Source: Deltaproteobacteria bacterium
GTDB taxonomy: Bacteria; Desulfobacterota; Dissulfuribacteria; Dissulfuribacterales; QOAL01
Direction of reading: 5' to 3'
DNA length: 15,371 nt
Assembly (NCBI GenBank): GCA_026996955.1
Contig: JALWJV010000229.1
Span: forward strand, 1 to 15,371
Shown here: one piece after another, positions 1 to 15,371 of the stretch
Position numbering within the stretch: position 1 is the first letter of the stretch
Layout: the number at the start of each line of letters is the position of its first letter
The notes under the pieces: model-generated
Database searches by the model: none
What the model was told of the DNA's origin: nothing
The model's input: the letters and a program-made list of their open reading frames with translations, nothing else
Translations under genes and position numbers: made by a program

Positions 1-177
1 TCGGCTATATGGGAATTCCTCTGACAAAGGAGATGCAGTAAATACGGCAATCCCGAAGGGTTTCAAAACTGGAAAGCTATAATCGATGTAACTCCTATTA
101 ATTTCGTTGAAAAAACAATTTTCCGGATTTTGAAACGCTCAATCTAGGATACACCTGTTTATTTAAGGAGAGATACC

Positions 178-840
178 ATGAGACACGTAATTCAAGCCAC
201 ACTGTCAATTTTAACCCTTGTATTCTTCATGAGTTCATGTGCTCCGCCTGCCAACAACACACAAAAAGGTGCTATTTATGGAGGGCTTGGAGGGGCTGCA
301 GCAGGTGCCATTGTTGGCCAGGCAATTGGTCATGATACAAAATCAACAGTAACCGGAGCTGCAATCGGCGCTGCAATCGGTTCTGCCTCAGGAGCAGGCA
401 TCGGCTACTACATGGACAAGCAGGAAGAGGCCCTGCGTAATGCAATGGCAGCATCGGATGCAGCATCCATCAGACGTTCCGGAAATGTTCTTGAGGTAAG
501 CTACAAAAGTGATCTGTTGTTTGATATCAACTCGGCAGCCGTGCATCCAGGTGCATATGATGACCTGGACAGGCTTGCCCGTGTGCTTGTTCAGTACCCG
601 GACACCATCATCCAGGTGGCAGGGCATACTGACAGCACCGGCTCAGAAAGCTACAACCTGAGCCTTTCCCAGCGGCGTGCCGAGACAGTGCGCCAGCTCC
701 TGATCCAGCGCGGTGTTGCACCCTCAAGAATAATCGCCATTGGTTACGGCGAGACAATGCCAAGGGCAAGCAACAGCACCGCCTCTGGAAGGCAGATGAA
801 CAGAAGGGTTGAGATAAGGATTCAGCCTGCTGGACCGTAA
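178..840 (+). CDS. OmpA-family outer-membrane lipoprotein (glycine-zipper segment plus OmpA-like peptidoglycan-binding domain)
   Basis: 220 aa ORF with GGAG at 167-170, 7 nt upstream of the ATG. The N-terminal signal peptide ends in a lipobox-like FMSSC. A Gly/Ala-rich glycine-zipper stretch follows (GGLGGAAAGAIVGQAIG...GAAIGAAIGSASGAGIG). The C-terminal domain carries OmpA-type motifs (AGHTDSTGSESYNLSLSQRRAETV, NRRVEIRI). Confidence 0.85.
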   Translation: MRHVIQATLSILTLVFFMSSCAPPANNTQKGAIYGGLGGAAAGAIVGQAIGHDTKSTVTGAAIGAAIGSASGAGIGYYMDKQEEALRNAMAASDAASIRRSGNVLEVSYKSDLLFDINSAAVHPGAYDDLDRLARVLVQYPDTIIQVAGHTDSTGSESYNLSLSQRRAETVRQLLIQRGVAPSRIIAIGYGETMPRASNSTASGRQMNRRVEIRIQPAGP

Positions 841-900
841 CACAGCAATAAAATACATATTTTCAGCACGTTTCAATACATAAACATTGCCATAACGTAT

Positions 901-1100
901 CTATTCAGCGTAGTGAATGGTCTTGTTTTGGAGTGACTATGAAGAATTTCGTAGTTTTTCTTGGCGAAGCGGAGCCAAAAAATCGCGACTGTCTGAGCGA
1001 GGTACGAGCGAGTTTCGCGATTTTGGCATAGCGAGCCTTAGAAAAACAAGAAATTGTTCTCCAGAACGGAAAAACAAGACCATTTACCAATGTTATTTAG
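901..1100 (+). repeat. 200 bp MITE-like palindromic repeat, full copy A
   Basis: Imperfect terminal inverted repeats of about 29 nt: ctattcagcgtagtgaatggtcttgtttt at 901-929, versus the reverse complement of aaaaacaagaccatttaccaatgttatttag at 1070-1100. An internal 10 bp stem pairs aaaatcgcga with tcgcgatttt. By-eye alignment shows the core is roughly 90 percent identical to the reverse complement of 4674-4873. The ORFs predicted inside it look spurious. Confidence 0.8.
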
Positions 1101-1164
1101 GTGAATGCGCTGAACAGTTATTTACCCACAACCATTAAATTTTGTCATTCTGATAAAAATAATA

Positions 1165-1194
1165 TTGACAACCGGGCATATTAAAGGCTATATG
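1165..1194 (+). promoter_or_regulatory. Candidate sigma70-type promoter that would give rho a leader of about 520 nt
   Basis: TTGACA at 1165-1170, a 17-18 nt spacer, then cTATATg at 1188-1194. This is motif matching only, with no transcript evidence. Confidence 0.3.
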
Positions 1195-1720
1195 ACAACA
1201 TCCTGAGGCTACATCTTGTGGATGCCTATTCAGAAACGGTCAGGTTCTGACCAATTTCCAGTTTCTGCAAGTCAAAATATCAGATCATAATCCGCACGAG
1301 GACACAATTTATCTGAAGTTTTATACTCCGTTTTACGAATTAAATTAAAGAGTCAGTCGGGCTTTATATTCGCTTCCTGCCGCAGGCAATGTTGATGGTG
1401 ACTTCCTGAATAAGCTGATTTTCAGGTTGTGTCTGTCATCTTTATGCTGCCGCTGTTGCTTTAATCGTCGTGCTGATTTTGTGTTTCATTCATTAATATT
1501 CAGTAGCCTCAGGTGACTGCAATCCAGGGGGAGAGGGCGGCAGTCTTAAATATAATGATTCTTTGTACTTCTTTGGTGCATATAACTTGTTTCTAAGTTT
1601 AGTAAACAAACCAGTTTTTTTGATAAAATCAGGCATAAACTTTTCCGGGGGTGGCACCCGGAGCCGGTTAACAACCGCAGAAATCACAGGCCACAATCTA
1701 AAGAGGAATTGAGGTGCCAG

Positions 1721-3049
1721 ATGGCGAGAAAACCCAAAAACAACAACAGGGATCAGGGTGGGGAACCCTCGGCAACAAATGGCAATCCCGTGAAGATCAT
1801 GAATCTTAATGATCTTAAAAAACAGCCGGTTACAGAACTTTACCAGCTTGCATCAGAGCTTGGAATAGAGTCGGCCAGGGGCAAGAGAAAACAGGAACTG
1901 ATATTTTCCATTCTCAAGACCCAGATGTCCAGAAGCGGCATTGTATATGCCCAGGGTGTGCTTGAAATCCTGCAGGATGGATTCGGATTTCTCCGCAGCC
2001 CTGATTACAACTATCTGCCAGGGCCGGACGATATTTATGTCTCTCCATCCCAGATAAGGCGCTTTAACCTGAATACCGGCGATACGGTTTCAGGCCAGAT
2101 ACGCCCGCCAAAAGAGGGAGAGCGCTACTTTGCACTGCTGAAGGTTGAATCCCTGAATTTTGATCCGCCGGAAAGCGCCTTTGATAAAATACTCTTTGAC
2201 AACCTGACCCCTCTCTATCCCCAGGAACACCTGCGCCTTGAAACCACCCCTGACAATCTTGGCGCCCGAATCATGGACCTCATAACTCCCATCGGCAAGG
2301 GACAGCGCGGTCTCATCGTGGCCCCGCCCCGTACAGGCAAGACCATGCTTCTCAAGAGCATTGCCAACAGCATCTCGGCCAATCACCCTGAGGTGATAAT
2401 GATTGTGCTGCTTATTGATGAAAGGCCTGAGGAAGTCACTGACATGCAGCGCTCTGTAAATGCAGAGGTCATAAGTTCCACCTTTGACGAACCTGCCCAG
2501 CGGCATGTCCAGGTATCAGAGATGGTGGTTGAAAAGGCAAAGAGGCTGGTTGAACACAAAAAAGACGTGGTAATTCTGCTGGACAGTATCACCAGGCTTG
2601 CACGAGCCTATAACACAGTGGTTCCGCCCAGCGGCAAGATACTTTCAGGTGGTGTTGACTCAAATGCGCTCCAGCGTCCCAAGAGGTTTTTTGGCGCAGC
2701 CAGGAATATTGAGGAGGGCGGAAGCCTTACAATCATTGCCACAGCCCTGATTGATACCGGAAGCCGCATGGATGAAGTTATCTTTGAGGAATTCAAGGGT
2801 ACCGGCAATATGGAAATCGTGCTTGACCGCAAGCTTACGGAAAAACGCATCTTCCCGTCCATTGATATCAACCGTTCAGGCACAAGGAAGGAAGACCTGC
2901 TGCTGCCGCCTGATGTGCTTAACAGGGTGTGGATACTGAGAAAACTCCTCTCACCACTTAATCCTGTGGACAGCATGGAGTTTCTCATGGACAAGATGGC
3001 AAGCACAGAGAGCAATGAAGAGTTCTTAAATTCCATGAACAAGGGCTAG
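1721..3049 (+). CDS. rho: Transcription termination factor Rho
   Basis: Collinear with E. coli Rho from [23 protein letters not shown] onward. It has the RNA-binding region ([15 protein letters not shown]), Walker A (APPRTGKT) and the rest of the RecA-type ATPase core. The ORF track opens at TTG 1709. I prefer ATG 1721 because GAGG at 1711-1714 lies 6 nt upstream. ATG 1799 would give the canonical N-terminus and cannot be excluded. Confidence 0.95.
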
Positions 3050-3078
3050 CAGTTTGTTTAATGGTAACTGGAGTGTGT

Positions 3079-3107
3079 CTATTCAGTGTGGTAAATGGTC
3101 TTGTTTG
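3079..3107 (+). repeat. Solo terminal-repeat fragment of the 200 bp repeat family
   Basis: ctattcagtgtggtaaatggtcttgtttg matches the reverse complement of 4845-4873 at 28 of 29 positions. The sequence following it has no similarity to the element interior. Confidence 0.65.
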
Positions 3108-3211
3108 TCGGTACGCTGAAACAGAAACGTTTAGTGTTGACTTAAGGCCCTGCAGGTGTTTTTTTATTGCCTGCCTGAAAAAGGCAATTAAATCAGTTTC
3201 AGGAGAATAAA

Positions 3212-3424
3212 ATGAAAGAAGGAATACATCCCAAATATTACAAGGCTACAGCCCGCTGTGCCTGTGGAAATGAGTTTGAGGTTGGTTCAACCATTGAGGA
3301 GATAAAGGTTGAAATCTGCGCCAAGTGTCATCCGTTTTTTACCGGAAAGCAGAAGCTGGTTGACACTGCCGGGCGTATTGAAAAATTCCGTAAGAAATAC
3401 GGTGACAAGGCTGCTGCAAAATAG
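3212..3424 (+). CDS. rpmE: 50S ribosomal protein L31, zinc-binding (type A) form
   Basis: 70 aa ORF beginning MKEGIHPKY with AGGAG at 3201-3205. It carries the CxC...CxxC cysteine pattern (CACGNEF...[12 protein letters not shown]) typical of Zn-ribbon L31. Confidence 0.95.
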
Positions 3425-3536
3425 ATTTTTGATTTGTATGCCCAAGGGGATTAATCAGGATTTTTCGTATAAAGCCCTGGTCTAACATTTTCAGTGCAAC
3501 CGTCGTGTCAGGGATTTTAAACTCCGCCAGCGCATA

Positions 3537-4619
3537 ATGGATCTTACCGCCAAGTTACAGGAACTTGAAGAACGGTACTCCCAGCTTGAAAAGGAGCTGA
3601 GTGACCCGGATGTCTTCAAGGACCAGAAAAAATATCAGGCAATTGCCAAGGAGCATTCTGATCTAGGAGCCGTGGTTAAGGTAAACCGCGAGTTTCGTGA
3701 AGTACAGCAGCAGTGTGCCGAGAACAGGGAGCTTCTTAATGATCCGGATCCTGACATGCAGGAGCTTGCCAGGGCTGAACTGGAAGAGCTTGAGGCCCGC
3801 TCTGAGGAACTTGAGGCAAAACTTAAACAACTGCTGTTGCCCAAGGACCCGCTGGACGAAAAGAATGTCATCCTTGAAATAAGGGCAGGGACCGGTGGAG
3901 ATGAGGCAGCGCTTTTCGCAGCAGACCTGTTTCGTATGTACTGCCGTTATGCTGAAGAAAAACACTGGAAGGTTGAAATCCTCAGTGAACACTCCACAGG
4001 CATAGGCGGCTACAAGGAGGTCATTGCAATGATTTCCGGAAACAGGGTTTACAGTCACCTGAAGTATGAAAGTGGTACCCACAGGGTTCAGCGGGTGCCA
4101 GATACAGAGACACAGGGCCGTATTCATACATCGGCAGTGACAGTGGCCGTGCTCCCGGAGGCCGATGATGTTGATGTGGAGATTGATCCCTCTGACCTCA
4201 GAATTGACGTTTACCGGGCATCAGGCGCCGGTGGCCAGCATGTAAACAAGACAGAATCCGCAGTTCGCATAACCCATATACCCTCAGGTCTTGTGGTGCA
4301 GTGCCAGGATGAAAGGTCCCAGCACAAGAACCGTGCAAAGGCCATGAAGGTGCTTGCCGCAAGGCTGCTTGACCTTGAAAAACGCAAACAGCATGAACAG
4401 TTAAGCGCTGAGCGCAAACAGTTGGTGGGCTCTGGTGACAGGAGCGAACGGATAAGGACCTACAACTTCCCCCAGGGCAGGGTTACCGACCACCGGATAG
4501 GGCTCACCCTTTACAAGCTTGAGGCTGTTATGCAGGGAGATCTTGATGAGCTTATTGAGGCACTGGGCACATACTTCCAGGCCCAGGCACTTGCAGCCGG
4601 AAGTGAATCTGCAAGCTGA
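3537..4619 (+). CDS. prfA: Peptide chain release factor 1
   Basis: 360 aa. The PxT tripeptide-anticodon region reads [18 protein letters not shown] (4098-4106). The GGQ motif reads [16 protein letters not shown] (4230-4238). It is full-length collinear with RF1. Confidence 0.95.
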
Positions 4620-4673
4620 ACCCTGCCCTTATTCTGTTTCTTTTCTTCTTTGTAACTGTTCAGCATAATTTTG

Positions 4674-4873
4674 TTAATGAAGGTTGGTAATTGGTCTTGT
4701 TTTTCCGTTCCGGTGAACAATTTCTTGTTTTTCTAAGGCTTGCTTCGCCAAAATCGCAAAACTCGCTCGTCCCTCGCTCAGACAGACGCGATTTTTTGGC
4801 TGCGCTTCGCCAAGAAAAACTACGAAATTCTTCAAAGTCACTCTAAAACAAGACCATTTACCACACTGAATAG
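4674..4873 (-). repeat. 200 bp MITE-like palindromic repeat, full copy B, inverted relative to copy A
   Basis: The reverse complement aligns end to end with 901-1100. I counted about 11 mismatches across the roughly 165 nt core. Terminal repeats are ttaatgaaggttggtaattggtcttgttttt and aaaacaagaccatttaccacactgaatag. It occupies most of the prfA-prmC spacer. Confidence 0.8.
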
Positions 4874-4937
4874 ATGCCTTCTTTTAAGCTTTTACAACAC
4901 CGGTAAAACGCAGTGTCAGGCATTGTGCCATTAATGA

Positions 4938-5873
4938 ATGACAGTTGATCAGGCACTTAGAATAATCGCCAAACGCCTTTCCCATGATGTGGCTTCTGAA
5001 AGGCCCAAATCCCAAATCGAAAATCCTCTCCTTGAGGCTGAAATACTGCTCTCTCACCTTCTTAATATGGAAAGGTGGCAGCTCAAGACCCGTGGCAGCA
5101 AACTCATAGAACCTGACCTGTACAGCCAACTGGAAACACTTGCGGCAAGACGCCTTGAAGGTGAGCCCCTGGCCTATCTTCTTGGTGTTAAAGAGTTCTG
5201 GTCAAGGGAGTTTCTGGTATCAAGTTCAACCCTCATTCCCCGCCCTGAGACTGAACTTCTGGTTGAAAGGGCAATTTCACTGTGCCCAGATAAAAACAAT
5301 CCGTTTATCCTTGATGCCGGGACAGGTAGCGGCATTATTGCAATTACACTTGCACTTGAACTCCCGGGTGCACTGATTGTTGCAACTGATATCTCTTTTG
5401 ATGCCCTCTGTACAGCCAAGCAAAACTTAAACAAATATGCAGATGAAATAAGTGACAATTCATCCAGGATATTTTTTGTTAACAGTGACTGGCTGGGAGG
5501 AATTAAAAAATCCCCCAGCTTTGACATCGTGGTATCAAACCCGCCATATATTGGCACACAGGAGGCAGAGCTCCTGGCGCCCGATGTTATCAGATACGAA
5601 CCACGGCAGGCACTGTTTGCAGGCAGCAGCGGACTTGATGCCATAAAGGAGCTTTTGGGCACAGTTCCTGATGTATTGTGTCCTGAAGGGTGGTTTTTAT
5701 GTGAAATAGGATACTTGCAGGGGGAAGATGTGCTTGAAATGGCAAGGAAATCCGGGAGATATGATTCCTGCAAAATAGAAAAGGACCTAGCCGGAATGGA
5801 CCGGATGCTCGTGGCCTCAAAAAAGGCCAGCAAAAAAGGGAATGAGCCGCTTACACGGCATCATTCCCTGTAA
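4938..5873 (+). CDS. prmC: Release factor glutamine N5-methyltransferase (PrmC/HemK)
   Basis: 311 aa with the SAM-binding motif ILDAGTGSGIIAI and the catalytic VSNPPYI (NPPY) motif. It has the conserved position downstream of prfA. There is a short basic C-terminal tail. Confidence 0.9.
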   Translation: MTVDQALRIIAKRLSHDVASERPKSQIENPLLEAEILLSHLLNMERWQLKTRGSKLIEPDLYSQLETLAARRLEGEPLAYLLGVKEFWSREFLVSSSTLIPRPETELLVERAISLCPDKNNPFILDAGTGSGIIAITLALELPGALIVATDISFDALCTAKQNLNKYADEISDNSSRIFFVNSDWLGGIKKSPSFDIVVSNPPYIGTQEAELLAPDVIRYEPRQALFAGSSGLDAIKELLGTVPDVLCPEGWFLCEIGYLQGEDVLEMARKSGRYDSCKIEKDLAGMDRMLVASKKASKKGNEPLTRHHSL

Positions 5874-5896
5874 AGTTAAAAACTTGACCCGAGGCC

Positions 5897-6091
5897 CTAT
5901 CTTCTGCGCCTGCGGCGTGCCTTGCGGCGTCTTCTTTCGGCTTCCTGCATCTTGCGGCGCCGCTTTACACTTGGTTTTTCGTAAAAACGGCGATTCTTGA
6001 GCTCTCGTTGAATCCCGTCGAGCTGCATCTTCTTCTTGAGCACACGGAGAGCCTTTTCCAGGTTGTCCTGGACTTCAACTACAATCGCCAA
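5897..6091 (-). CDS. rpsU: 30S ribosomal protein S21
   Basis: 64 aa, very basic, with S21-like sequence ([37 protein letters not shown]). It has a TTG start preceded by AAGGGGGG about 6 nt upstream on the minus strand. Confidence 0.88.
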
Positions 6092-6124
6092 GGGAATCCC
6101 CCCTTTCTTTTTTAGAATTTCCGG

Positions 6125-6153
6125 ATTATATCAGGTTGGCTTTTTACAATCAA
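6125..6153 (-). promoter_or_regulatory. Candidate sigma70 promoter for rpsU
   Basis: On the minus strand: TTGATT (6153-6148), an exact 17 nt spacer, then TATAAT (6130-6125). The -10 element ends about 33 nt upstream of the rpsU start codon. Confidence 0.5.
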
Positions 6154-6400
6154 TAAAAAAATACCTTCTGGTTCCCTGCTCGACTATAATGTAGTTTAGG
6201 TGTAAAATTTTCCTATCTGCTCAAATAGTGCCGCATCTGCTGCTTTCTCAGGGGCTGGAACGCCTGTGCCCTCATTAGCATTGCATTTGCAGCAACGTGG
6301 GAGCAGATACATTGCATGAAAAATGTCTTTCCAGCTTTGCAACCTTCGAGCGGAGAAAGCAGTTATAAATTTGGACATATAACAATGAATGGAGGCAACC

Positions 6401-7456
6401 ATGTCCGACCTGACCATAAAAGATAAAAACAGGGCAGTTGACGCTGCCCTGAGCCAGATACAGAAACAGTTTGGAAAGGGCGCTGTAATGCGCCTTGGTG
6501 ACAAGGGGAGTGTTGAGGATGTAGCTGTTATTCCAACCGGTTCCATTGCCGTTGATATTGCAACAGGCGTAGGCGGGGTGCCAAGGGGAAGGATAGTGGA
6601 AATATTCGGACCCGAATCTTCAGGCAAGACCACCCTTGCACTTCACATTATTGCAGAGGCTCAGAAGTCAGGTGGCATTGCTGCCTTTATTGATGCAGAA
6701 CACGCAATGGACCCTGTTTATGCCTCAAAACTGGGGGTAAATACCGAAGACCTCCTCATATCACAGCCCGATTACGGCGAGCAGGCACTTGAGATAGCAG
6801 ATTCTCTGGTTAGAAGCGGTGCGCTGGATATCATAGTGATTGACTCTGTTGCCGCCCTTGTGCCAAAGGCAGAGATTGAGGGCGAAATGGGGGATACCCA
6901 TGTGGGCCTTCAGGCACGGCTCATGTCGCAGGCACTCAGGAAACTTACTGCCAATCTCAACAAGACCAACACCGTGCTTATTTTCATCAATCAGATTCGC
7001 ATGAAAATAGGCGTGATGTTTGGAAACCCCGAGACAACCACTGGCGGTAACGCCCTAAAATTTTACTCCACTATGCGCCTTGATATAAGGCGGACTGCAG
7101 CCCTGAAGGAAGGAGCAGACGTGATAGGCAACCGGACAAAGGTAAAGGTTGTAAAGAACAAGATTGCGCCTCCCTTCAAACAGGCTGAGTTTGATATCTA
7201 CTACGGAGAGGGGATTTCCAGGGAAAGCTCACTGCTGGACCTTGGGGTTGCCGTTGACATAATTGAAAAGAGCGGGGCATGGTACTCATATAACGGCGAG
7301 CGCATGGGGCAGGGCAGAGAGAATGTAAGGAATTTCATGAAGGAAAACCCTGAAATTACATCAGAGATAGAAAACCGGGTTCGTGAGGCCTATGGCCTGC
7401 CTCCCCTTGAAAAGACAACGACAGAGGCAGAAACTGAAGAGGCTGCCGACTCCTGA
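6401..7456 (+). CDS. recA: Recombinase RecA
   Basis: Near-perfect RecA collinearity, including Walker [11 protein letters not shown], the L1/L2 loop regions and an acidic C-terminal tail. The ORF track starts at 6389, but GGAGG at 6391-6395 sits 5 nt before ATG 6401. That start gives the typical N-terminus [17 protein letters not shown]. Confidence 0.97.
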
Positions 7457-7557
7457 TAAGGTGTCTTTGGCACAAAAGAGAGGTTGGGTTTTCTGTACCT
7501 GCCTGGTAAAGGTCAAAACTTGATAATTGAAAAACATACATTTTGTCAACAGATTAT

Positions 7558-10194
7558 ATGAAAAACTTAAAAGGTTCTGAAATACGAAAGCTGTTTCTTG
7601 ATTACTTTGAAAGCAAGGGGCATCAGGTAGTTTCAAGCTCCTCTCTTGTACCGGCTGATGATCCCTCCCTCCTGTTTACCAATGCCGGAATGGTACAGTT
7701 CAAGAAGGTGTTTCTTGGGGAGGAGACAAGGCCCTACAAACGTGCTGCCACAAGCCAGAAGTGTGTAAGGGCAGGGGGTAAGCACAATGATCTTGAAAAT
7801 GTCGGATACACAGCCAGGCATCACACATTTTTCGAGATGCTTGGTAACTTCTCCTTTGGGGACTATTTCAAGAGGGAGGCAATTGCATTTGCCTGGGAAT
7901 TTTTGACAGAGGTACTTGAGCTTCCCAAGGAGAGGCTCTGGGCAACTGTTTTTGAAGATGATGACGAGGCCGCAGCCATGTGGCCTGAGATCACAGGGAT
8001 TTCTCCTGACCGTGTGGTTCGTCTGGGTGAGGAGGATAATTTCTGGGCAATGGGTGATACCGGGCCGTGCGGGCCCTGCTCGGAGATACTTATTGACCAG
8101 GGAGAGGATATAGGCTGCGGAAGACCTGAGTGCCGTGTGGGCTGCGACTGTGACCGGTACCTTGAAATCTGGAACCTGGTATTCATGCAGTTTTTCAGGG
8201 ATGAGAGTGGCCGCATGTCAAGTCTTCCTGACCCATGCATTGATACCGGTATGGGGCTTGAGCGTATTGCAGCAGTGTGCCAGGGAAAGTTCAACAACTT
8301 TGACACCGACATATTTGCAGCGATAATGAATCACCTCCAGAAACTCTCGGGGCTTGAATATGGCAAGGGGGCAGGCACAGACATTGCCATGCGGGTTATT
8401 GCAGACCATGCAAGGGCATCGGCATTTCTGATAGCAGACGGCGTAATCCCTTCAAATGAGGGCCGGGGCTATGTTCTCAGGCGGATAATCAGGAGGGCAG
8501 TACGTTACGGTCGGGTTCTGGGGCTTACAGATGCCTTTATGGCATCAGTTGCCGGTGTTGTCTGTGATGACATGGGTGACATCTATCCTGAACTTGATAA
8601 ATCCAGGGATTTCATGTCCAGGGTGCTTGAAAATGAAGAAACCCGGTTTGCAGAAACACTTGAAACAGGCCTCAGGATACTTGATGAACGAATCCAGGAG
8701 CTCAAGGAGAAGAATGAAAAACAACTGCCTGGAGATTTTGTTTTCAAGCTCTACGATACTTACGGCCTGCCTGTAGATATTGTGCAGGATGTTGTAAAGG
8801 AGCAGGGGGCAGATTTTGACCGAGAAGGTTACAGAAGAGCACGAGAGGAGCAGAGAAGGCGTTCAAAGAGTGCGCACCGAGATGCAGTAACTGAAAAACT
8901 TCCTGATATTTACCGGGAGCTTCTGGCAAAGGGCAAGGGAGTAGATTTTTCAGGATACGAAACCCTTGCCTGTGACTCCACAATACTTGCCCTGGTTTCA
9001 GGACAGGAGGCCCTTGATGCTGTGGAAAGCGGCTGGGAGGGTGAGCTTGTTGTGGAGACCACGCCTTTTTATGCAGAATCAGGCGGGCAGCAGGGGGATA
9101 CAGGTATCATAAAATCAGACGCAGGCAGCGCAGAGGTGCTTGATACTGTCAAACGTGGGGATCTTATTGTACACAAGGTCAGGGTGATAAGCGGAACGCT
9201 TCGGGCAGGCGACGCTGTCCATCTTGCAGTGACCGAGGGCAGGCGAATGGACATTGCACGAAACCATACAGCAACCCACCTGCTTCATGCAGCCCTTCGC
9301 CAGGTCCTTGGTGATCATGTCAAGCAGTCCGGCTCCCTTGTGGCGCCTGATCATCTGCGCTTTGACTTTACCCACTTCTCAGGGGTGTCCACTGTGGAAC
9401 TCCAAAAGGTTGAAGACATTGTAAATGAAAAAATCAGGGCAGATCTCCCGGTGGATACAGAGGTCATGTCCCAGGAAGAGGCAATAAGCCGTGGTGCCAT
9501 GGCGCTGTTTGGCGAAAAATATGGTGATACCGTGCGGGTTGTGAACATACCGGAGTTCAGCATGGAGCTTTGCGGCGGCACTCACCTTGAGAGGACAGGA
9601 CAGGCAGGATTTTTCAAGATAACATCAGAGTCAAGTGTATCAGCAGGGCTTAGAAGGATTGAGGCATGTACCGGTAGCACTGCAGTAAACCTTGTGCATC
9701 AGATGGAAAACACTATTTCAGACATGGCATCAACGCTGAAATGCCCTGTTACCGCAGTAAAAGAAAAGGTGGAATCCCTGTCTGCACGTGTAAAGCAGTT
9801 GGAAAAGGATCTGCAAAAGGCCCTGGCTTCAAAGGCTGCCGCAGGGATTGATGATATACTTGAAAACGCAAGACAGGTTAATGGTATTACTGCAATTGCT
9901 GAAGTGGTTGATGTCCCTGACGCAAAGGCACTTCGGGAAGCTGGGGACAGGATAAGGGACAGGCTCAAGTCAGGTGTGGTGGTGCTCGGTGCTGAAAATA
10001 ACGGCAAGGCCCTGCTCTTGTGTGTTGTTACCAAGGATCTTGCTGGAAAAACCTGCCACGCCGGAAAGATAATCAAGGAAGTGGCCTCAGTTGTAGGCGG
10101 AGGCGGTGGAGGCCGCCCTGACATGTCACAGGCAGGTGGAAGCCGTCCGGAAAAGCTTGAGGAGGCTGTAAAGAAGCTCTATGAGCTCCTCTAG
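7558..10194 (+). CDS. alaS: Alanine--tRNA ligase
   Basis: Class II catalytic core (FTNAGMVQFK, RHHTFFEMLGNFSFGDYFK), editing-domain HxxxH motif (HTATHLLH...CGGTH) and C-terminal DHHA1-like GGGGGGRPDMSQAGG. The ORF track opens at TTG 7543. ATG 7558 (MKNLKGSEIRKLF) matches the usual AlaS N-terminus better. No clear Shine-Dalgarno sequence precedes either start. Confidence 0.96.
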   Translation: MKNLKGSEIRKLFLDYFESKGHQVVSSSSLVPADDPSLLFTNAGMVQFKKVFLGEETRPYKRAATSQKCVRAGGKHNDLENVGYTARHHTFFEMLGNFSFGDYFKREAIAFAWEFLTEVLELPKERLWATVFEDDDEAAAMWPEITGISPDRVVRLGEEDNFWAMGDTGPCGPCSEILIDQGEDIGCGRPECRVGCDCDRYLEIWNLVFMQFFRDESGRMSSLPDPCIDTGMGLERIAAVCQGKFNNFDTDIFAAIMNHLQKLSGLEYGKGAGTDIAMRVIADHARASAFLIADGVIPSNEGRGYVLRRIIRRAVRYGRVLGLTDAFMASVAGVVCDDMGDIYPELDKSRDFMSRVLENEETRFAETLETGLRILDERIQELKEKNEKQLPGDFVFKLYDTYGLPVDIVQDVVKEQGADFDREGYRRAREEQRRRSKSAHRDAVTEKLPDIYRELLAKGKGVDFSGYETLACDSTILALVSGQEALDAVESGWEGELVVETTPFYAESGGQQGDTGIIKSDAGSAEVLDTVKRGDLIVHKVRVISGTLRAGDAVHLAVTEGRRMDIARNHTATHLLHAALRQVLGDHVKQSGSLVAPDHLRFDFTHFSGVSTVELQKVEDIVNEKIRADLPVDTEVMSQEEAISRGAMALFGEKYGDTVRVVNIPEFSMELCGGTHLERTGQAGFFKITSESSVSAGLRRIEACTGSTAVNLVHQMENTISDMASTLKCPVTAVKEKVESLSARVKQLEKDLQKALASKAAAGIDDILENARQVNGITAIAEVVDVPDAKALREAGDRIRDRLKSGVVVLGAENNGKALLLCVVTKDLAGKTCHAGKIIKEVASVVGGGGGGRPDMSQAGGSRPEKLEEAVKKLYELL

Positions 10195-10225
10195 TATCTT
10201 CTTTTGAATAATGAAGGTTAGATTA

Positions 10226-10307
10226 ATGCTCAAGGTATGATGCTCAAAGATAATGGTAGAGAAAATCATGCTTTTTTACTTTGGGCCTTGAGCTTTCATT
10301 TTGAGCT
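10226..10307. promoter_or_regulatory. Four copies of the hexamer GCTCAA/TTGAGC (two direct, then two inverted) upstream of the stressosome-type operon
   Basis: atGCTCAAgg at 10226-10235, atGCTCAAag at 10240-10249, ccTTGAGCt at 10286-10294 and TTGAGCt at 10301-10307. Spacing within each pair is 13-14 nt. The cluster ends about 40 nt before the ATG at 10346. Its function is unknown. Confidence 0.3.
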
Positions 10308-10345
10308 GTTTTTACATTACAAATGAATAAAAGGAGGGCTGTAAC

Positions 10346-11227
10346 ATGAACGAACTGAAGGACTACCAGAGTGACGAGGGCTTCCTGTTTGAAATCGTAA
10401 ATGCGGTTCCTTCAGGGATATTTGTTACAGACCTTGAGCACAACATCCTCATAATCAACAAGGCTGCCGCAGATATGGTGGGCCTTACGCCGGGTCAGTG
10501 TTTTGACCGCAAGTGTTATGAAATATTCAATACCAGCATGTGCGGCACTGACCAGTGCACATGCAGGGTGGCTATTGACAACAACCGGGTCAACCAGGGC
10601 CAGACCACGCTTCATGCTGAAAATGGCGAGGTGATAATAGAGTATGCAAGCCGTCCGTTAAGGAATCATGCCGGTGAAATAATAGGTTGCGTGGAACATT
10701 TTATTGATGTCTCTGCACGGGTCGCCCAGGAGGAGGCCATACTCCAGCAGCAGCGTGACCTGCTCAAGAAAAGAGAGGAGGACATACGGCATCTCCAGGA
10801 AGAGATACTTGAGCTCTCCACCCCGGTTGTAGAGGTGTGGGAAGGGGTGCTTGCGCTTCCTCTGATTGGCACCCTTGACAGTCACCGGGCAAGGAGCGCA
10901 ATGGAGCTCCTTCTGAATGAAATCGAGAAGACCCGTTCTCCCTATGTAATTATTGATATTACAGGTGTGCCAACGGTTGATACCGAGGTTGCAAACCATC
11001 TGCTTCAGACGGTTGATGCCGTGCGTCTCATGGGCAGTGAGGCTATCCTTACAGGTGTTTCAACCCATATCGCACTTACCATGGCCCATCTTGGTGTGGA
11101 ACTTGGCACAATAAAGGTGAGGAGCCGCATGGCAGACGCTCTTCATTTTGTGATCAGAAAGATGCATAAACGCCGTCAGGATACCCCGCTTACTGAGCTT
11201 ATACTGCAGGACGGCATGAAAAAATAA
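10346..11227 (+). CDS. RsbR-like stressosome sensor: N-terminal Cys-rich PAS domain, helical linker, C-terminal STAS domain
   Basis: 293 aa with GGAGG at 10333-10337, 8 nt upstream. PAS-like N-terminus (VPSGIFVTDLEHNILIINKAAADMVGL...GEIIGCVEHFIDVS). The RsbR-type STAS signature reads ELSTPVVEVWEGVLALPLIGTLDSHRA...IIDITGVPTVDTEVA...ILTGVSTHIALT. Thr213 and Thr245 lie at the positions of the B. subtilis RsbRA phosphosites. Confidence 0.85.
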   Translation: MNELKDYQSDEGFLFEIVNAVPSGIFVTDLEHNILIINKAAADMVGLTPGQCFDRKCYEIFNTSMCGTDQCTCRVAIDNNRVNQGQTTLHAENGEVIIEYASRPLRNHAGEIIGCVEHFIDVSARVAQEEAILQQQRDLLKKREEDIRHLQEEILELSTPVVEVWEGVLALPLIGTLDSHRARSAMELLLNEIEKTRSPYVIIDITGVPTVDTEVANHLLQTVDAVRLMGSEAILTGVSTHIALTMAHLGVELGTIKVRSRMADALHFVIRKMHKRRQDTPLTELILQDGMKK

Positions 11228-11293
11228 GAGCATCTTTAACTGTGTCATCCATTTACTTGCGCAAACCATGCCCCTGAAACCTGAAACGTACAG

Positions 11294-11710
11294 ATGACGC
11301 CCTTTTCCATATTCCCCATGCAGGATGTAATTATGGTCTCAATCCAGGAGGAGATTGATGACACCCATATTGCATCCCTGGTAAAGGCACTGAGCAGGCG
11401 GGTAAGGGAGACCCATGTACGCTTTGTAATCATTGATCTTCACGATGTTGAGGCAGTGGACACATTTCTTGCTGGAGAGATAGAAAAACTGGCCTCAATG
11501 CTGAATCTCCTCAGGGCATCAACCATTGTGGTGGGACTTTCTGTTCCTGCAGTCCTTACCCTGCTTGATTTTGGCATTCGTTTAAGGGGGGTGGAGTTTG
11601 CCCTGGATGTTGCCCAGGCACTTGAGAGAATCACTTCAGGTGCTGGAACAGACATGCCATACCCTGATGAGTTGGCCAGCATTACAGACAATCCACAGGG
11701 CGAAGGGTAG
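11294..11710 (+). CDS. RsbS-like single-domain STAS protein (stressosome scaffold)
   Basis: 138 aa. DVIMVSIQEEIDD...VRFVIIDLHDVEAVDTFLAGE...STIVVGLSVPAVLTLLDFGI is collinear with RsbS. Thr57 (codon 11462-11464) is at the position of the RsbS Ser59 phosphoacceptor. Confidence 0.85.
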   Translation: MTPFSIFPMQDVIMVSIQEEIDDTHIASLVKALSRRVRETHVRFVIIDLHDVEAVDTFLAGEIEKLASMLNLLRASTIVVGLSVPAVLTLLDFGIRLRGVEFALDVAQALERITSGAGTDMPYPDELASITDNPQGEG

Positions 11711-11716
11711 TCACAG

Positions 11717-12127
11717 GTGTTTACTGACAGAAGCCGGTACTGTGCCCCGGTAAGTCCAGGCACAGGGATAGTGCCTGCCAGGATCATGGCGCGCTCCCTT
11801 CTGAAACGCCTGAACATTAATGAGCCAGCAAGGGCAGAGGTGCTGCTGCTTGTAAACGAACTTGCTACAAACATCATAAGGCATGGACTGGAGGGTGAAC
11901 TCTGTATCTTCCCGGTAACTGCAGAGGGCTATACAGGTTTTCTCATAAGGGCAACTGACCGGGGACCTGGCATCAAGGATCTTGAAACTGCGCTTAAACC
12001 AGGCATTTCACAGGACAATGGCCTGGGCCTGGGACTATCAGCCATAAAACGCATTGCAGACGATGTGAGGATATCAAGCATGATTGAGGGGGGAACACAG
12101 GTGGAGGTCTGGAAATGGCTGAGCTGA
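11717..12127 (+). CDS. RsbT-like GHKL serine/threonine kinase (stressosome switch kinase)
   Basis: 136 aa with a GTG start 6 nt after the previous stop. N-box NELATNIIRHG, G1 DRGPGI, G2 NGLGLGLS and C-terminal GTQVEVWKWL all match the RsbT/RsbW-type HATPase_c_2 pattern. Confidence 0.85.
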   Translation: MFTDRSRYCAPVSPGTGIVPARIMARSLLKRLNINEPARAEVLLLVNELATNIIRHGLEGELCIFPVTAEGYTGFLIRATDRGPGIKDLETALKPGISQDNGLGLGLSAIKRIADDVRISSMIEGGTQVEVWKWLS

Positions 12128-13182
12128 GCATGCAGCCAGTATGGAAGGAGCTTCCAGTGGCCTCCTCTGCTGATGTCCCCATCATAAGGCGGGCTGTTGG
12201 TAATATAGCGCTTAATTTGGGCTTTTCAGAAAAGAGACAGGCAGAGGTGGTGCTTGCGGCAAGTGAACTTGCCCAGAATCACGTAAATTTCAACACTGTC
12301 AAGGGACGAATCCTGATCTCCGGCCTGTTTTCAGGAAAAACCTCCTTCATTACCATATTTTCCACAGATCATGGCCCCGGCATTAATAATCTTCCCCAGG
12401 CACTTGAAGATGGCATTACCACAGGAAACAGCTATGGGAACGGGCTTGGCACGGTGCGCCGCCTGGCAGATGATTTTTCAATATGTTCAGGCTCTGCTGG
12501 CTCCATGGCCTGTTTCCCTGAACTGCTCTCCCCTGAAGGCACCGGAACCATTGTAGCCGCCTCATTTTCAAGTGACAGCTCTGTCCTTTCGCCGAAAATT
12601 ACTGTCTCTGCCCTTGCCTGCCCAAAGAGGGGAGAGCTCTTTTGCGGGGATGGAATTTACATGGAACAGAGCGGGGATACCTTGCTGATTGTGCTCGCAG
12701 ATGTTCTGGGTCATGGAAAGGAGGCAGCAGAATCTATTGAAACGCTCTGGGACATCCTTGAACTCCTTGATCCGTCTGCTGAACTTTCAAACACCGTGTG
12801 TACCCTTGACAGGGGCCTTGCCGGAAAACGCGGCATGGCATGTCTGTTCATGCGGATTGATCTTGCCAGCGGCATGCTGCAGGCATGCAGCGTGGGAAAC
12901 ATCCGTGCATGCCTTCATGACGGAACCAGGCAGTTTGCAATTGCATCGCTCCCCGGGGTCATTGGCCAGAAGATAAACTGCCGGAAGGTTATGGTGCAGG
13001 AGGTTTTGCTTGCAAGCGGGACAACCTGCCTGATCTTTTCTGACGGCATTGATTCCTCAGCCTTTGCCGCAAGGATAAGAAACAGTATGCATCCTTTGTT
13101 CCAGACATATCTTGCATTTAAGACAGCCCTGTCCCCCTGGGATGATGCGTCGATAATAGCGTGGAGATGGCAGAAACCATAA
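12115..13182 (+). CDS. Fusion protein: RsbT-like kinase domain (N-terminal) plus PP2C/SpoIIE-family phosphatase (C-terminal, RsbX-like)
   Basis: 355 aa. GGAGG at 12103-12107 lies 7 nt before the ATG, and the ORF overlaps the upstream gene by 13 nt. The N-terminal half has an intact N-box (ASELAQNHVNF), DHGPGI and GNGLGTVRRLADDF. After a Ser-rich linker, the C-terminal half has PP2C metal-site motifs (CGDGIY, LIVLADVLGHGKEAA, LIFSDGI, DDASIIAW). Confidence 0.8.
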   Translation: MAELSMQPVWKELPVASSADVPIIRRAVGNIALNLGFSEKRQAEVVLAASELAQNHVNFNTVKGRILISGLFSGKTSFITIFSTDHGPGINNLPQALEDGITTGNSYGNGLGTVRRLADDFSICSGSAGSMACFPELLSPEGTGTIVAASFSSDSSVLSPKITVSALACPKRGELFCGDGIYMEQSGDTLLIVLADVLGHGKEAAESIETLWDILELLDPSAELSNTVCTLDRGLAGKRGMACLFMRIDLASGMLQACSVGNIRACLHDGTRQFAIASLPGVIGQKINCRKVMVQEVLLASGTTCLIFSDGIDSSAFAARIRNSMHPLFQTYLAFKTALSPWDDASIIAWRWQKP

Positions 13183-14507
13183 CAAAAAGAGTACACATCC
13201 TCACCCTGGTTATTAAAAACCGAAGGGATATTCCCCTGGTGCGCGGAAAGGCCAAGCATCTTGTAAGGCTCTGCAGCATGAGCAGGGTGGACCGGGCAAG
13301 GGTGGCAGTGTCTGCATCTGAGATGGCGCGATACCTGCTGGAACACACATCCGGGGGCTCTGTATCGTTTCTTCTGGTTTGCTGCAATCCGGCATGCGCC
13401 ACAGACAGGGATGATTCCTGTGCAGGGATCCTGCTGAAATTCAAGGGGAACCACGTTTTCAAAAAAGATGATATGAAAAATCAGGGTGCAATGGCTCCAA
13501 ACCTCTATGCCTTTCCCCCAATGGAGACAAGAAGGCCATTTGATGGCATTGGTAAGGCAATGGACAGCCTTAAAATCATCAAAAACGGCATAAGGGAACC
13601 CCTGGAGCTTGATATAATCAAGTGGGGGGTGAAAAAAACATGGGAAGAGCTTGTTGCATCAAACGAATTCTTAAGAAAAAAGCTCTTTCGTAACGCTGAA
13701 GAATCGTTCATAGCAAACCTCAGGGCAAAACATGATGAGGTGCTGAAGCTTCTTGATGAGCTTTCGCAAAAAAACAGGGAGCTTGACCGTGCCAACAAGG
13801 AGCTCATGCAGCTCAGCAATGACCTGGAAATCCTCACCCATGAACGGACAATGTCAGAGATCGCCCTGAAGGTGGCAGACCGCATAAGAAATCCTGCTAC
13901 GGCAATTGGTGGCCTGACCCTTGTCCTACTAAAAAAAGCACCGAAAGACAAATGGTTACAGGAAAAACTTGAGGCAATTTTTCATGAGGCAAAACGCCTT
14001 GAGAAAATTGTAAAGGACTTTGATTCCCTTGCTGCTGCCAAGTCCAAGAGTTTTGAAAAGGTGGACCTGAGGGAGATTGTAAAGACGGTCCTCGAGACCC
14101 TCTCCACCAATTTTCAGCAAAGGGATATAAAGGTAAATGAAAAATTTATAGATGAGCCGGTAATTGCCCTTGTAAACCGCCAGACCATCAAGGTGGCATT
14201 GCTCCACATACTGAGAAATGCCATTGAGGCATCACCAAATGGAGGCATCATAGACGTTACGGTCTGGAGGCGTGATGGCAAGCCGTTCATATCTGTGAGA
14301 GATTATGGACCTGGAATTTCACAGGACATCCAGGAAAAACTGTTTAAGAAGACTGTTACCACAAAGGCAACCGGAACAGGCATGGGACTGATGACAGTCA
14401 AGCAGATAATGGATGAACACAAGGGCAAGATAGAGATAAAGAGCGGAAGGGAACCCGGTCAGGGTACAGAGGCCATCATGTTCTTTCCTGTGCGCTGGAG
14501 CGAATAG
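13161..14507 (+). CDS. Histidine-kinase-like protein: degenerate RsbT-like N-terminal domain, coiled coil, DHp helix with Asp in place of the phosphoacceptor His, and an intact HATPase_c domain
   Basis: 448 aa, overlapping the upstream gene by 22 nt. The start may be GTG 13161 or ATG 13167. Residues 1-155 align to the RsbT pattern but lack ATP-binding motifs. Residues 165-230 are heptad-rich (LRAKHDEVLKLLDELSQKNRELDRANKELMQLSNDLEIL). The H-box reads VADRIRNPATAIGG. The catalytic domain has the N box HILRNAIEAS, G1 DYGPGI, F LFKK and G2 GTGMGL. Confidence 0.8.
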   Translation: MEMAETITKRVHILTLVIKNRRDIPLVRGKAKHLVRLCSMSRVDRARVAVSASEMARYLLEHTSGGSVSFLLVCCNPACATDRDDSCAGILLKFKGNHVFKKDDMKNQGAMAPNLYAFPPMETRRPFDGIGKAMDSLKIIKNGIREPLELDIIKWGVKKTWEELVASNEFLRKKLFRNAEESFIANLRAKHDEVLKLLDELSQKNRELDRANKELMQLSNDLEILTHERTMSEIALKVADRIRNPATAIGGLTLVLLKKAPKDKWLQEKLEAIFHEAKRLEKIVKDFDSLAAAKSKSFEKVDLREIVKTVLETLSTNFQQRDIKVNEKFIDEPVIALVNRQTIKVALLHILRNAIEASPNGGIIDVTVWRRDGKPFISVRDYGPGISQDIQEKLFKKTVTTKATGTGMGLMTVKQIMDEHKGKIEIKSGREPGQGTEAIMFFPVRWSE

Positions 14508-14522
14508 GGGCGGCTGGCAATA

Positions 14523-15371
14523 TCATTCCTGTTTCAGAATTGAAATAATCCTCTCCAGTTCCTCCCTTGTATCATATCTTATTTCAAGTTTGCCACCCCG
14601 TTTTCCCTGATTGATCTTTACCGGCGAGCCAATGGCATAGGTAAGCTCTTCGCACAGTGCCACAATGTTCGGGTCAATGCTTCTTTTGTTTTTTTCAGGC
14701 TCATCACCTGATTTTTCAAGTTTTCTTGCAAGTGCCTCTGCCTTTCTTACAGAGAGTTTTTTAGTGATTATGGTGTCCCGCAATTGCTTCTGGAGCTTTG
14801 GGTCTGTTACCATCAGGATTGCCTTGGCATGCCCCATGGTAAACCGCTCCTCCAGCAGGTCTTCACGGGCATAATCTGGAAGCTGAAGCAGCCGCAGAAA
14901 ATTTGCAACTGTTGCCCTGTCACGTCCAACCCTTTTAGCTGCCTCTGCCTGGGTAAGCCCAAAGTCTTCAATCAGGCGCTGGTATGCCATTGCCTCTTCA
15001 AGGGGGTTCAGGTCCTGGCGCTGAATATTTTCAATAAGCGCAATCTCAAGGAGTTCATCAGGGCTTACGTCCTTGATTACAACCGGAACGGTTTTCAGGC
15101 CGGCCTTCTGGGATGCACGCCACCTGCGTTCCCCTGCCACAAGCTCATAGCCCTCACCAGCAGGACGCACCACAAGGGGCTGCAACACACCCTTTTCCCT
15201 GATGGAATCTGCCAGGGCTGCCAGGGCTTCCGGGTCTATCTTCTTGCGGGGCTGCTCCGGGTTTGCCCTTATCTTTTCAATGGGACAAAGAAAAAACCCC
15301 GGGCTTCCAGCCTCATAAATTTCCTCTGACGAAAGCAGGGCGCCAAGTCCCTTACCCAGACCTCCCTTCAT
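14523..15371 (-). CDS. parB: Chromosome partitioning protein ParB (Spo0J family)
   Basis: 282 aa starting MKGGLGKGLGALL, with its ATG on the last three bases of the window. It has the ParB box with the arginine patch (VAGERRWRAS) and a helix-turn-helix (LTQAEAAKRVGRDRATVANFLRLLQL). The upstream region, and parA if present, lie outside the window. Confidence 0.9.
   Translation of the reverse strand: MKGGLGKGLGALLSSEEIYEAGSPGFFLCPIEKIRANPEQPRKKIDPEALAALADSIREKGVLQPLVVRPAGEGYELVAGERRWRASQKAGLKTVPVVIKDVSPDELLEIALIENIQRQDLNPLEEAMAYQRLIEDFGLTQAEAAKRVGRDRATVANFLRLLQLPDYAREDLLEERFTMGHAKAILMVTDPKLQKQLRDTIITKKLSVRKAEALARKLEKSGDEPEKNKRSIDPNIVALCEELTYAIGSPVKINQGKRGGKLEIRYDTREELERIISILKQE

Follow-up and report, generated by a model that had tools for sequence, protein, structure and literature searches.

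An Asp-type histidine kinase-like protein encoded in a stressosome operon of a Dissulfuribacterales bacterium

Introduction

Two-component signalling is defined by phospho-histidine. The gene considered here lies on contig JALWJV010000229.1 of a Deltaproteobacteria bacterium (NCBI GenBank assembly GCA_026996955.1; order Dissulfuribacterales), of which positions 1 to 15,371, read on the forward strand, were analysed and are referred to as the window. Its product, called the target below, contains the stretches ...THERTMSEIALKVADRIRNPATAIGGLTLVL... and ...ERTMSEIALKVADRIRNPATAIGGL... and combines an N-terminal domain and a coiled coil with a dimerisation and histidine phosphotransfer (DHp) hairpin and a catalytic and ATP-binding (CA) domain. 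Databases label these proteins 'sensor histidine kinase'; codon 240 of the target, at the place of the phospho-accepting His, reads GAC (13878-13880) and encodes Asp. The locus raises the question whether this Asp is an error, a sign of decay or the mark of a different kind of transmitter, and what such a transmitter might do in an operon of stressosome genes. As judged from the sequence comparisons reported below, the replacement of His-Glu by Asp-Arg or Asp-Lys is the defining conserved mark of a sizeable family, and not an error.

Results

Asp240 occupies the position of the phospho-accepting His

The target was compared with all PDB chains using phmmer. Residues 230-445 aligned with solved HisKA kinases (ZraS, E 1.2e-23; ThkA, 1.6e-23; KinB, 3.2e-21; HK853, about 1e-14), and every printed alignment placed 'kvaDRirnp' over 'gvaHEirnp', 'rvaHEirnp', 'sisHEirnp' or 'nisHElrtp'. 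From this register with the solved kinases, Asp240 corresponds to the phospho-His, Arg241 to the catalytic acid that follows it (H+1) and Asn244 to position H+4, which bears out the alignment of Asp240 with the HisKA His that had been proposed in an earlier note on the window. The Pfam HisKA model scored 24.6 bits on the target, below its gathering score of 26.9, and among the NCBIfam models AtoS (3e-39) and ZraS (3e-34) matched with scores that all lay far under the family cut-offs. The DHp domain was thereby found to be homologous to HisKA but to lack both the phospho-accepting His and an acidic H+1, while the phosphatase-type residue at H+4 (Asn244) and the boxes of the CA domain are kept.

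The earlier note had also called the catalytic boxes intact. This held for the N box (HILRNAIEAS, 14205-14234), the G1 box (DYGPGI, 14301-14318) and the G2 box (GTGMGL, 14373-14390), with the key residues N353, D381-x-G-x-G385 and G405-x-G-x-G409 all present, but not for the F box, which is only partial (LFKKTV, compared with FxPF). In an AlphaFold (AF2) model of the full-length protein, with a predicted local distance difference test score (pLDDT) of 78.8, a single unbroken helix (179-259) is followed by the second DHp helix (264-295) and then by the CA domain. A database protein that is 100% identical to the target (P0001) comprises 446 amino acids, so translation may start at ATG 13167, in which case the residue in question would be Asp238.

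Asp at this position is shared by a large group of proteins

A search with the target against about 5.8 billion proteins gave 99 hits. The motif AD[RKQSN][IV]RNP was present in 47 of the first 48 clusters, the exception being P0039 with 'AHGIRNP', and from hit 49 onward His was found at the phospho-acceptor position wherever the H-box motif could be located. In an alignment of 32 full-length homologues, reaching down to 32% identity, residues A239, D240, R243, N244, P245, G250 and G251 were invariant, and H+1 was occupied by Arg (22), Gln (6), Lys (3) or Ser (1).

A profile comprising the signalling helix, the DHp domain and the CA domain was searched against 1.84 billion representatives of 50%-identity clusters, with no word index. 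Its best 150 matches included 64 Asp-type and 77 His-type representatives. Among the Asp-type sequences, H+1 was never acidic (R 33, K 16, Q 6, N 3, G 3, S 2, C 1), whereas it was Glu or Asp in 72 of the 77 His-type representatives; H+4 was Asn in 59 and Thr in 5 of the Asp-type group. The N-box Asn was retained in 59/64 Asp-type modules and the DxGxG motif in most of them. One further column differed exclusively between the two groups, namely the Trp of a C-terminal FPxRW motif, which was present in 98% of the 64 Asp-type but in 0/77 His-type representatives, including the 14 closest His-type relatives. These counts indicate that the exchange of His-Glu for Asp-Arg or Asp-Lys is a concerted one and is maintained by selection.

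When one genome per GTDB species was scanned with a sequence pattern, 80 loci were identified. The Asp module is found in Thermodesulfobacteriota and Nitrospirota. In 79 species genomes, the codon corresponding to Asp240 was either GAC (55) or GAT (24); neither of the His codons, CAC and CAT, occurred. A sequencing error at 13878 is refuted by these codons, and with the Asp conserved in 32/32 homologues the caveat that GAC and CAC differ by one base, raised in the earlier note together with the advice to align orthologues, falls. Beyond that one-base distance, an error or a recent pseudogenisation from CAC to GAC would have to accommodate the invariance of the Asp down to 32% identity and the replacement of the adjoining Glu, which requires at least two base changes, as well as the identical Asp sequence in an independently assembled, 99% identical Deltaproteobacteria metagenome-assembled genome (L009); its probability is negligible.

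A His-form sister of the target was found in a metagenomic protein of 423 amino acids (P0115), which has the same type of N-terminal domain (E 1.9e-15), the sequence ENLRAKHEEL, a signalling helix, a DHp domain and an intact CA domain. Its H box is the canonical 'AHEIRNP', and the C-terminal RW is missing. At the sequence level, this protein confirms that the Asp, the basic residue at H+1 and the Trp change jointly. No STAS gene lies within the 925 nt upstream of it on its short contig.

Other His residues were considered as acceptors and rejected. H227 and H275, named as alternatives in the earlier note, both vary among the homologues, and no conserved His is present elsewhere in the DHp domain. 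His191 is located 49 residues upstream on the same long helix, at a distance from the DHp site that we estimate at about 70 Å, and is absent from Asp-type proteins without a link to the stressosome; in our reading, it belongs to the junction that connects to the N-terminal domain. With the His and the H+1 acid replaced throughout the family and no conserved substitute in the DHp domain, the earlier suggestion that the protein probably does not perform His-Asp phosphotransfer is upheld, and we predict that the target is incapable of canonical autophosphorylation on His and of His-to-Asp transfer.

Another departure from the catalytic His-Glu pair within the same HisKA subfamily was noted in P0052-P0059, proteins of about 610 amino acids, several with GAF and receiver domains, in which the His is kept and H+1 is Ile, Ala or Val ('VH[IAV]IRNP').

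The N-terminal domain adopts a predicted RsbT-like fold

Residues 1-168 of the target had no Pfam match, the HATPase_c_2 model matching the C-terminal domain only (residues 340-425). A fold search was needed for this domain, since a sequence search against PDB chains returned noise only (pelota at E 0.02). An AF2 model of residues 1-168, based on 20 homologues (pLDDT 84.8; predicted template-modelling score, pTM, 0.81), gave SpoIIAB, RsbW and UsfX as the top Foldseek matches in the PDB (E 5e-5 to 7e-4, probability 1.0, TM score 0.47-0.78). When aligned with the RsbT-like protein of the window using hhalign, 115 columns comprising nearly the whole of RsbT fell into one register (E 0.0024), at a probability of only 12%. 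The domain has no DxGxG motif, and where RsbT has 'ELATN' it reads 'SEMARY', with Tyr58, by our own reading, at the position of the N-box Asn. Because its ATP-binding motifs are gone, it is referred to as a pseudo-RsbT domain. Its invariant residues are H12, D23, R28, K32, S53, E54, R57 and G66.

The helix that follows (179-259) carries an NLRAKHEEV motif, an ERT motif and the first DHp helix. Within the junction motif, N186, L187, K190, H191 and E193 were invariant in the 32 homologues. The His-form sister P0115 shares this motif, and the PAS-fused protein P0025 has it as QHEQV; it is missing from membrane-anchored Asp-type proteins such as P0041. The ERT motif directly before the DHp domain is presumably a signalling-helix (S-helix) motif.

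The target is encoded at the end of a stressosome operon

Four genes precede the target gene on the same strand and either overlap or lie no more than 66 nt apart (Table 1). By their content and order, the five genes are a stressosome module with the arrangement RsbR-RsbS-RsbT-(RsbT~PP2C)-target. The RsbT-like kinase has intact boxes (N, ELATNIIRH; G1, DRGPGI; G2, GLGLGL), and the kinase domain of the RsbT~PP2C fusion is apparently intact as well (N, ELAQNHV; G1, DHGPGI). In the RsbS-like protein, we take the Thr of 'VDTF' to be the equivalent of the phosphorylated Ser59 of Bacillus subtilis RsbS, an assignment made by eye. The fusion gene overlaps both of its neighbours; among the last three genes, the first overlap measures 13 nt and the second 22 nt, or 16 nt with a target start at ATG 13167, which suggests translational coupling and a fixed stoichiometry. 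A scan of the operon for promoters and terminators yielded no consensus sites above shuffle expectation.

The PAS domain of the RsbR-like sensor contains a five-Cys cluster (CFDRKC-x8-C-x4-C-x-C, about residues 52-73) that is kept in 51/52 related RsbR-like proteins and may serve these anaerobes as a metal, Fe-S or redox-sensing site. Similar Cys-rich PAS domains were observed in P0025 and in PAS-kinases encoded downstream of Asp-type genes (ORFs L051:6755-7843 and L076:6796-7893).

In agreement with the earlier note, according to which no response regulator gene follows and the next gene is a convergent parB 15 nt away, open reading frame (ORF) and Pfam data placed no receiver-domain gene in the operon or downstream of the target within the window. 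The target ORF, including its stop codon, ends at 14507, and a 15-nt gap separates it from parB at 14523. The remainder of the window (1-10194) holds housekeeping genes on the + strand, which were named from their translated sequences without a family search. An Rfam scan found no family at threshold anywhere in the window.

Table 1. Features of the target gene, its operon and the rest of the window (positions are those of the window; aa, amino acids of the target).
Feature	Position	Strand	Basis or remark
Target ORF: pseudo-RsbT domain, coiled coil, Asp-type DHp, CA	13161-14507	+	448 aa from GTG at 13161
N-terminal domain, aa 1-168, RsbT/RsbW/SpoIIAB-type GHKL fold	13161-13664	+	AF2 model and Foldseek
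Junction motif N-L-R-A-K-H-D/E-E-V, aa 186-194, start of long helix	13716-13742	+	32-homologue alignment
E-R-T motif just before DHp	13842-13850	+	E228, R229 and T230 invariant or nearly so
DHp helical hairpin, aa ~231-295	13851-14045	+	AF2 helices 179-259 and 264-295; HisKA match residues 235-291
H-box equivalent A-D-R-I-R-N-P, aa 239-245	13875-13895	+	Residue-by-residue alignment to ZraS, ThkA, KinB and HK853
CA (HATPase_c) domain	14058-14495	+	Pfam HATPase_c 6.6e-20; alignment to solved CA domains
C-terminal F-P-V-R-W motif, aa 442-446, including Trp446	14484-14498	+	Group column comparison
RsbR-like sensor: PAS with five-Cys cluster, linker helix, STAS	10346-11227	+	Pfam PAS_4 7.4e-14, STAS 2.7e-13
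RsbS-like single STAS protein	11294-11710	+	Pfam STAS 4.4e-09; conserved synteny
RsbT-like GHKL Ser/Thr kinase	11717-12127	+	Pfam HATPase_c_2 1.4e-13; NCBIfam spIIAB 1.5e-12
Fusion of RsbT/RsbW-like GHKL (residues 17-129) and PP2C/SpoIIE (187-313)	12115-13182	+	Pfam HATPase_c_2 5.5e-08, SpoIIE 2.1e-10
parB, convergent; marks the operon end, not part of the system	14523-15371	-	Pfam ParB_N 1.8e-35, HTH_ParB 2.3e-35, ParB_C 5.4e-13
OmpA-like lipoprotein	178-840	+	Named from translation
rho	1709-3049	+	Named from translation
prfA	3537-4619	+	Named from translation
prmC	4938-5873	+	Named from translation
recA	6389-7456	+	Named from translation
alaS	7543-10194	+	Named from translation

The Asp module is re-used behind many sensor domains and is linked to canonical kinases

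The Asp module is a reusable output that stands behind many sensor domains. In 55 Asp-type representatives, Pfam detected PAS (17), receiver (11), HAMP (4), dCache (3) and Tll0287-like (3) domains and one each of MASE3, ETR1_N, NIT and RsbU_N. In P0025, an RsbR-type PAS domain with the CFDRKC...C...C.C cluster is joined directly to the junction motif and the Asp module, an arrangement that puts the module downstream of the sensor in a single pathway. In 21 Nitrospirota genomes, the Asp module is located behind other N-terminal regions and has no STAS genes nearby; beyond local synteny, no conserved neighbour or receiver was found beside the Asp-type genes at these 21 loci. The genes for P0042, P0025, P0130 and P0244 were all orphans with unrelated neighbours, and no receiver gene was consistently adjacent to the Asp-type gene in 79 related loci. 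For ten Asp-type clusters, the source labels were generic only, such as 'PAS domain S-box' or 'signal transduction histidine kinase'.

Several arrangements connect the Asp module with canonical kinases. P0105 and P0111 have the order sensor, canonical HisKA-HATPase, receiver (REC), REC and Asp module. In P0101 and in P0244 of the same cluster (P0101/P0244, L088:6001-8931), the Asp module is followed by a PAS domain and then by a canonical kinase whose DHp domain reads 'FAHDMKNP...GGF..R.LSGKAGPLTEKQ', and at least 8 stressosome loci encode a separate PAS-kinase with the same signature ('LTHDLKAP...GKAGPLTEKQ') directly after the Asp-type gene. P0101 and P0244 represent a gene-fusion link between the Asp module and the canonical PAS-kinase. 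The downstream PAS-kinases with 'THDLKAP...GGF..RLL.GKAGPLTEKQ' occur in one clade, at the loci L045, L048, L051, L052 and L057 as well as L070, L076, L077, L078 and L086.

Pairs of a kinase and a sigma-54/NtrC-type regulator adjoin several loci (L001, L003, L027, L035, L043, L056 and L066). They are located upstream of rsbR in L001, L003 and L035, with a PilS-like kinase in L001 and L003, and downstream in L027, L043 and L056. Such a pair is absent from the window and represents a candidate partner system.

Operon composition varies together with the state of the CA domain

The stressosome-linked set was defined as the 57 species genomes whose Asp-type protein has a pseudo-RsbT domain. RsbR and RsbS were encoded directly upstream of the target orthologue in 51 of them, several of the other six loci being truncated where their contig stops. 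Between RsbS and the target orthologue, three arrangements were observed: RsbT together with an RsbT~PP2C fusion, the arrangement of the window and of Dissulfurimicrobium hydrothermale; the RsbT~PP2C fusion alone, as the only kinase-like gene; or an empty middle, with only RsbR and RsbS preceding the target orthologue (L002/L080). Because the middle of the operon varies, RsbR, RsbS and the target protein are regarded as its constant core. At none of the loci did a receiver gene follow. In the many loci with the fusion as sole kinase-like gene, the stressosome kinase and the resetting phosphatase may be a single protein.

The CA boxes were intact at 34 of the 57 loci; the remaining 23 orthologues have lost N, G1 and G2, yet keep AD[RQ]xRNP. 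A separate RsbT was encoded at 23/34 loci with an intact CA domain but at 0/23 loci with a degenerate one (Fisher 6e-8), and a downstream kinase was found at 8/23 degenerate but 0/34 intact loci (Fisher 3e-4); both p-values overstate the independence of the loci, since shared ancestry is uncorrected in these counts.

These distributions bear on the proposal of the earlier note that the CA domain acts on Ser/Thr residues of the STAS proteins. In that case, it would phosphorylate RsbR or RsbS as RsbT does, with the DHp domain as a mere dimerisation scaffold. The gene is indeed co-operonic with those for two STAS proteins, the CA boxes of the window protein are intact, and some GHKL proteins with helical-bundle domains are Ser kinases (PDK/BCKDK, plant phytochromes). 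The operon, however, has its own intact RsbT along with another intact RsbT-like domain, and the CA domain was lost exactly where a separate RsbT is absent, which argues against the target as a substitute for RsbT. No STAS genes accompany the module at the 21 Nitrospirota loci or where PAS, REC, HAMP or Cache domains precede it, and a STAS kinase would leave the invariant Asp-Arg and the Trp unexplained. The proposal finds little support in these comparisons and is considered very unlikely.

Discussion

A candidate DHp-surface transmitter

Since the target is predicted to be unable to form His~P, we regard it as a regulated transmitter that does not depend on His phosphorylation. Our preferred reading, to which we give slightly less than even odds, is that it is a stressosome-docked output module that is not phosphorylatable on His and that probably binds or dephosphorylates a response regulator or modulates a true kinase. 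The pseudo-RsbT domain would dock on the STAS core or compete for it, as RsbT does. The state of the stressosome would then pass along the coiled coil and alter the conformation of the DHp and CA domains, which in turn would control the binding of a partner on the DHp surface, most likely either a response regulator, which would be sequestered or dephosphorylated, or a genuine histidine kinase, which would be modulated in its activity. In the window protein, with its intact CA domain, bound nucleotide could tune this conformation, and D240-x-x-x-N244, with its two residues one helical turn apart, could serve as a phosphatase or regulator-docking site with no need of the CA domain.

Transmission through the DHp surface is favoured because both kinase residues are replaced, Asn244 is invariant and Asp-Arg is kept despite the decay of the CA domain. 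As 23/57 stressosome-linked orthologues retain Asp-Arg next to degenerate boxes, the role of the Asp is probably independent of the CA domain. In HisKA kinases, the H+1 acid is needed for kinase activity only and the H+4 Thr or Asn for phosphatase activity only (PMC3510030), and the phospho-His helps to place the hydrolytic water (PMC7005713). Positions H+10 to H+12 appear, by our own reading of the sequences, to differ between Asp-type subfamilies, as they do between paralogous kinases.

Several observations weigh against this transmitter model. No receiver gene is present in the window and none is consistently adjacent in the 79 loci that could provide the partner; the N-box Asn (59/64) and DxGxG are mostly kept, also in the window protein, which argues for an ATP-dependent activity; and N244 and RNP were inherited from the parent 'HEIRNP' subfamily, so that a structural role may account for their invariance. 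That the pseudo-RsbT domain docks on STAS is suggested by fold and synteny, the sequence match to RsbT being weak, and the associations between CA decay and operon content are weakened by the uncorrected ancestry of the loci.

Alternatively, the CA domain might transfer the gamma-phosphate of ATP onto the carboxylate of Asp240, and the resulting acyl phosphate might be passed on to a receiver Asp or hydrolysed as a timer. Arg or Lys241 would replace the general base and offset the negative charge, and the C-terminal Trp would shape a new active site. The concerted switch of His-Glu with a co-varying Trp does look like re-engineering and not like decay, and the retention of the ATP-binding motifs, with all boxes counted as intact in the window protein and 34/57 orthologues, would be expected of such an enzyme. 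Acyl phosphates and phosphohistidine have a similar group-transfer potential, and acetyl phosphate and other small acyl phosphates serve receiver domains as donors for autophosphorylation. On the other hand, the 23/57 orthologues without N, G1 and G2 that keep Asp-Arg imply that the Asp is selected even without an ATP site in cis, although 8 of them adjoin a canonical histidine kinase that might act in trans. Moreover, no receiver gene is adjacent, and we know of no precedent for a GHKL domain that phosphorylates a carboxylate. An aspartyl autokinase is therefore judged distinctly unlikely.

The decay of the CA domain in 23/57 orthologues is compatible with an inert scaffold or adaptor, a catalytically dead tether of the stressosome to another complex in which ATP binding is vestigial. 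The His-less DivL acts without kinase or phosphatase activity, with most of its CA domain dispensable (bioRxiv 10.1101/812529). The very strong purifying selection on the Asp, the H+1 Arg/Lys, the Asn, the Pro and the Trp across differing architectures is difficult to reconcile with an inert role, as is the retention of ATP-binding motifs in most of the family, and we consider this explanation unlikely, though it deserves to be kept in view.

Comparison with known systems

The likeness to His-less pseudokinases such as DivL that was pointed out in the earlier note is reasonable. DivL of Caulobacter crescentus is a known His-less pseudokinase (PMC4211667; bioRxiv 10.1101/812529); ChrS- and PsmA-type pseudokinases are likewise known. 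Like the target, DivL combines a HisKA-type DHp domain and a CA domain with a residue other than His at the acceptor position. It acts by protein contacts, binding DivK~P and modulating the true kinase CckA, and Asp modules are sometimes fused to or encoded beside a true kinase. The two proteins differ in several respects: the target has Asp instead of Tyr, and its H+1 acid is replaced as well; its CA boxes are intact, whereas most of the DivL CA domain is dispensable; and its input comes from a degenerate RsbT-like domain and its gene lies in a stressosome operon, whereas the input of DivL consists of multiple PAS domains. The phmmer match to DivL (4q20, E 4.4e-9) is far weaker than those to ZraS, ThkA and KinB, so that DivL is not an orthologue.

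The best matches of the DHp and CA domains are to ZraS/AtoS/ThkA/KinB-type HisKA kinases with 'AHEIRNP' (E 1e-23 to 3e-21). The target shares R-N-P, IGG and the N, G1 and G2 boxes with these kinases and differs from them by Asp-Arg and the C-terminal FPxRW. By analogy with the motifs that act on phospho-Asp, H-E/D-x-x-T/N in HisKA and H-D-x-x-x-Q/H in HisKA_3, a phosphatase role is conceivable, since the target likewise places an acid and an amide one helical turn apart; its acid, however, occupies the His position itself and not H+1. D240/N244 also presumably resemble the acid-amide pairs of CheZ and CheX, a likeness that serves as a lead only.

A stressosome operon with a histidine kinase-type output is known from Vibrio vulnificus, in which RsbR-RsbS-RsbT-phosphatase (RSTX) genes are followed by VvD1 and VvD2 instead of RsbU/sigma-B; VvD1 is described as a sensor kinase that together with VvD2 constitutes a two-component system thought to control c-di-GMP (PMC10014275). 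In comparison, the operon in the window has no second output gene, its kinase-like protein has Asp in place of His and carries its own RsbT-like domain, and its phosphatase is fused to another RsbT-like domain. In B. subtilis, RsbT freed from the stressosome activates the phosphatase RsbU by binding (PMC12143880). There, too, a helical linker with an RsbT fold at its base governs a C-terminal output domain, and one Asp-type member has RsbU_N where others have the pseudo-RsbT domain; in the target, by contrast, the RsbT-like domain is covalently fused and without ATP motifs, and the output is histidine kinase-like and not PP2C.

The Asp-type protein family is apparently undescribed: no Asp-type DHp family, Trp signature or pseudo-RsbT fusion was found in the literature searched, the coverage of which was incomplete, so that an earlier description is possible. 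In a 2026 survey of atypical, unrecognised HisKA-like domains, a conserved His column was part of the design (bioRxiv 10.64898/2026.02.27.708494), so that the survey would have skipped these proteins.

Implications

The Asp-type proteins constitute a coherent and widely re-used transmitter module, with 64 of the 150 nearest 50%-identity clusters and a dozen kinds of sensor domain in front of it, and not a single degenerate kinase. If its members are dedicated regulator phosphatases or kinase modulators, or if they perform a new phosphoryl chemistry, either outcome would change the reading of such genes in genomes. Were the Asp phosphorylated, the proteins would represent a distinct enzymatic class that may connect the stressosome to a candidate response regulator by Asp-to-Asp phosphotransfer. 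Natural controls are available in the His-form sister P0115 and in the cultured D. hydrothermale, whose genome is complete (CP085041). For the stressosomes of anaerobic sulfur bacteria that have no RsbU/sigma-B at the locus, the Asp family provides a concrete and testable output.

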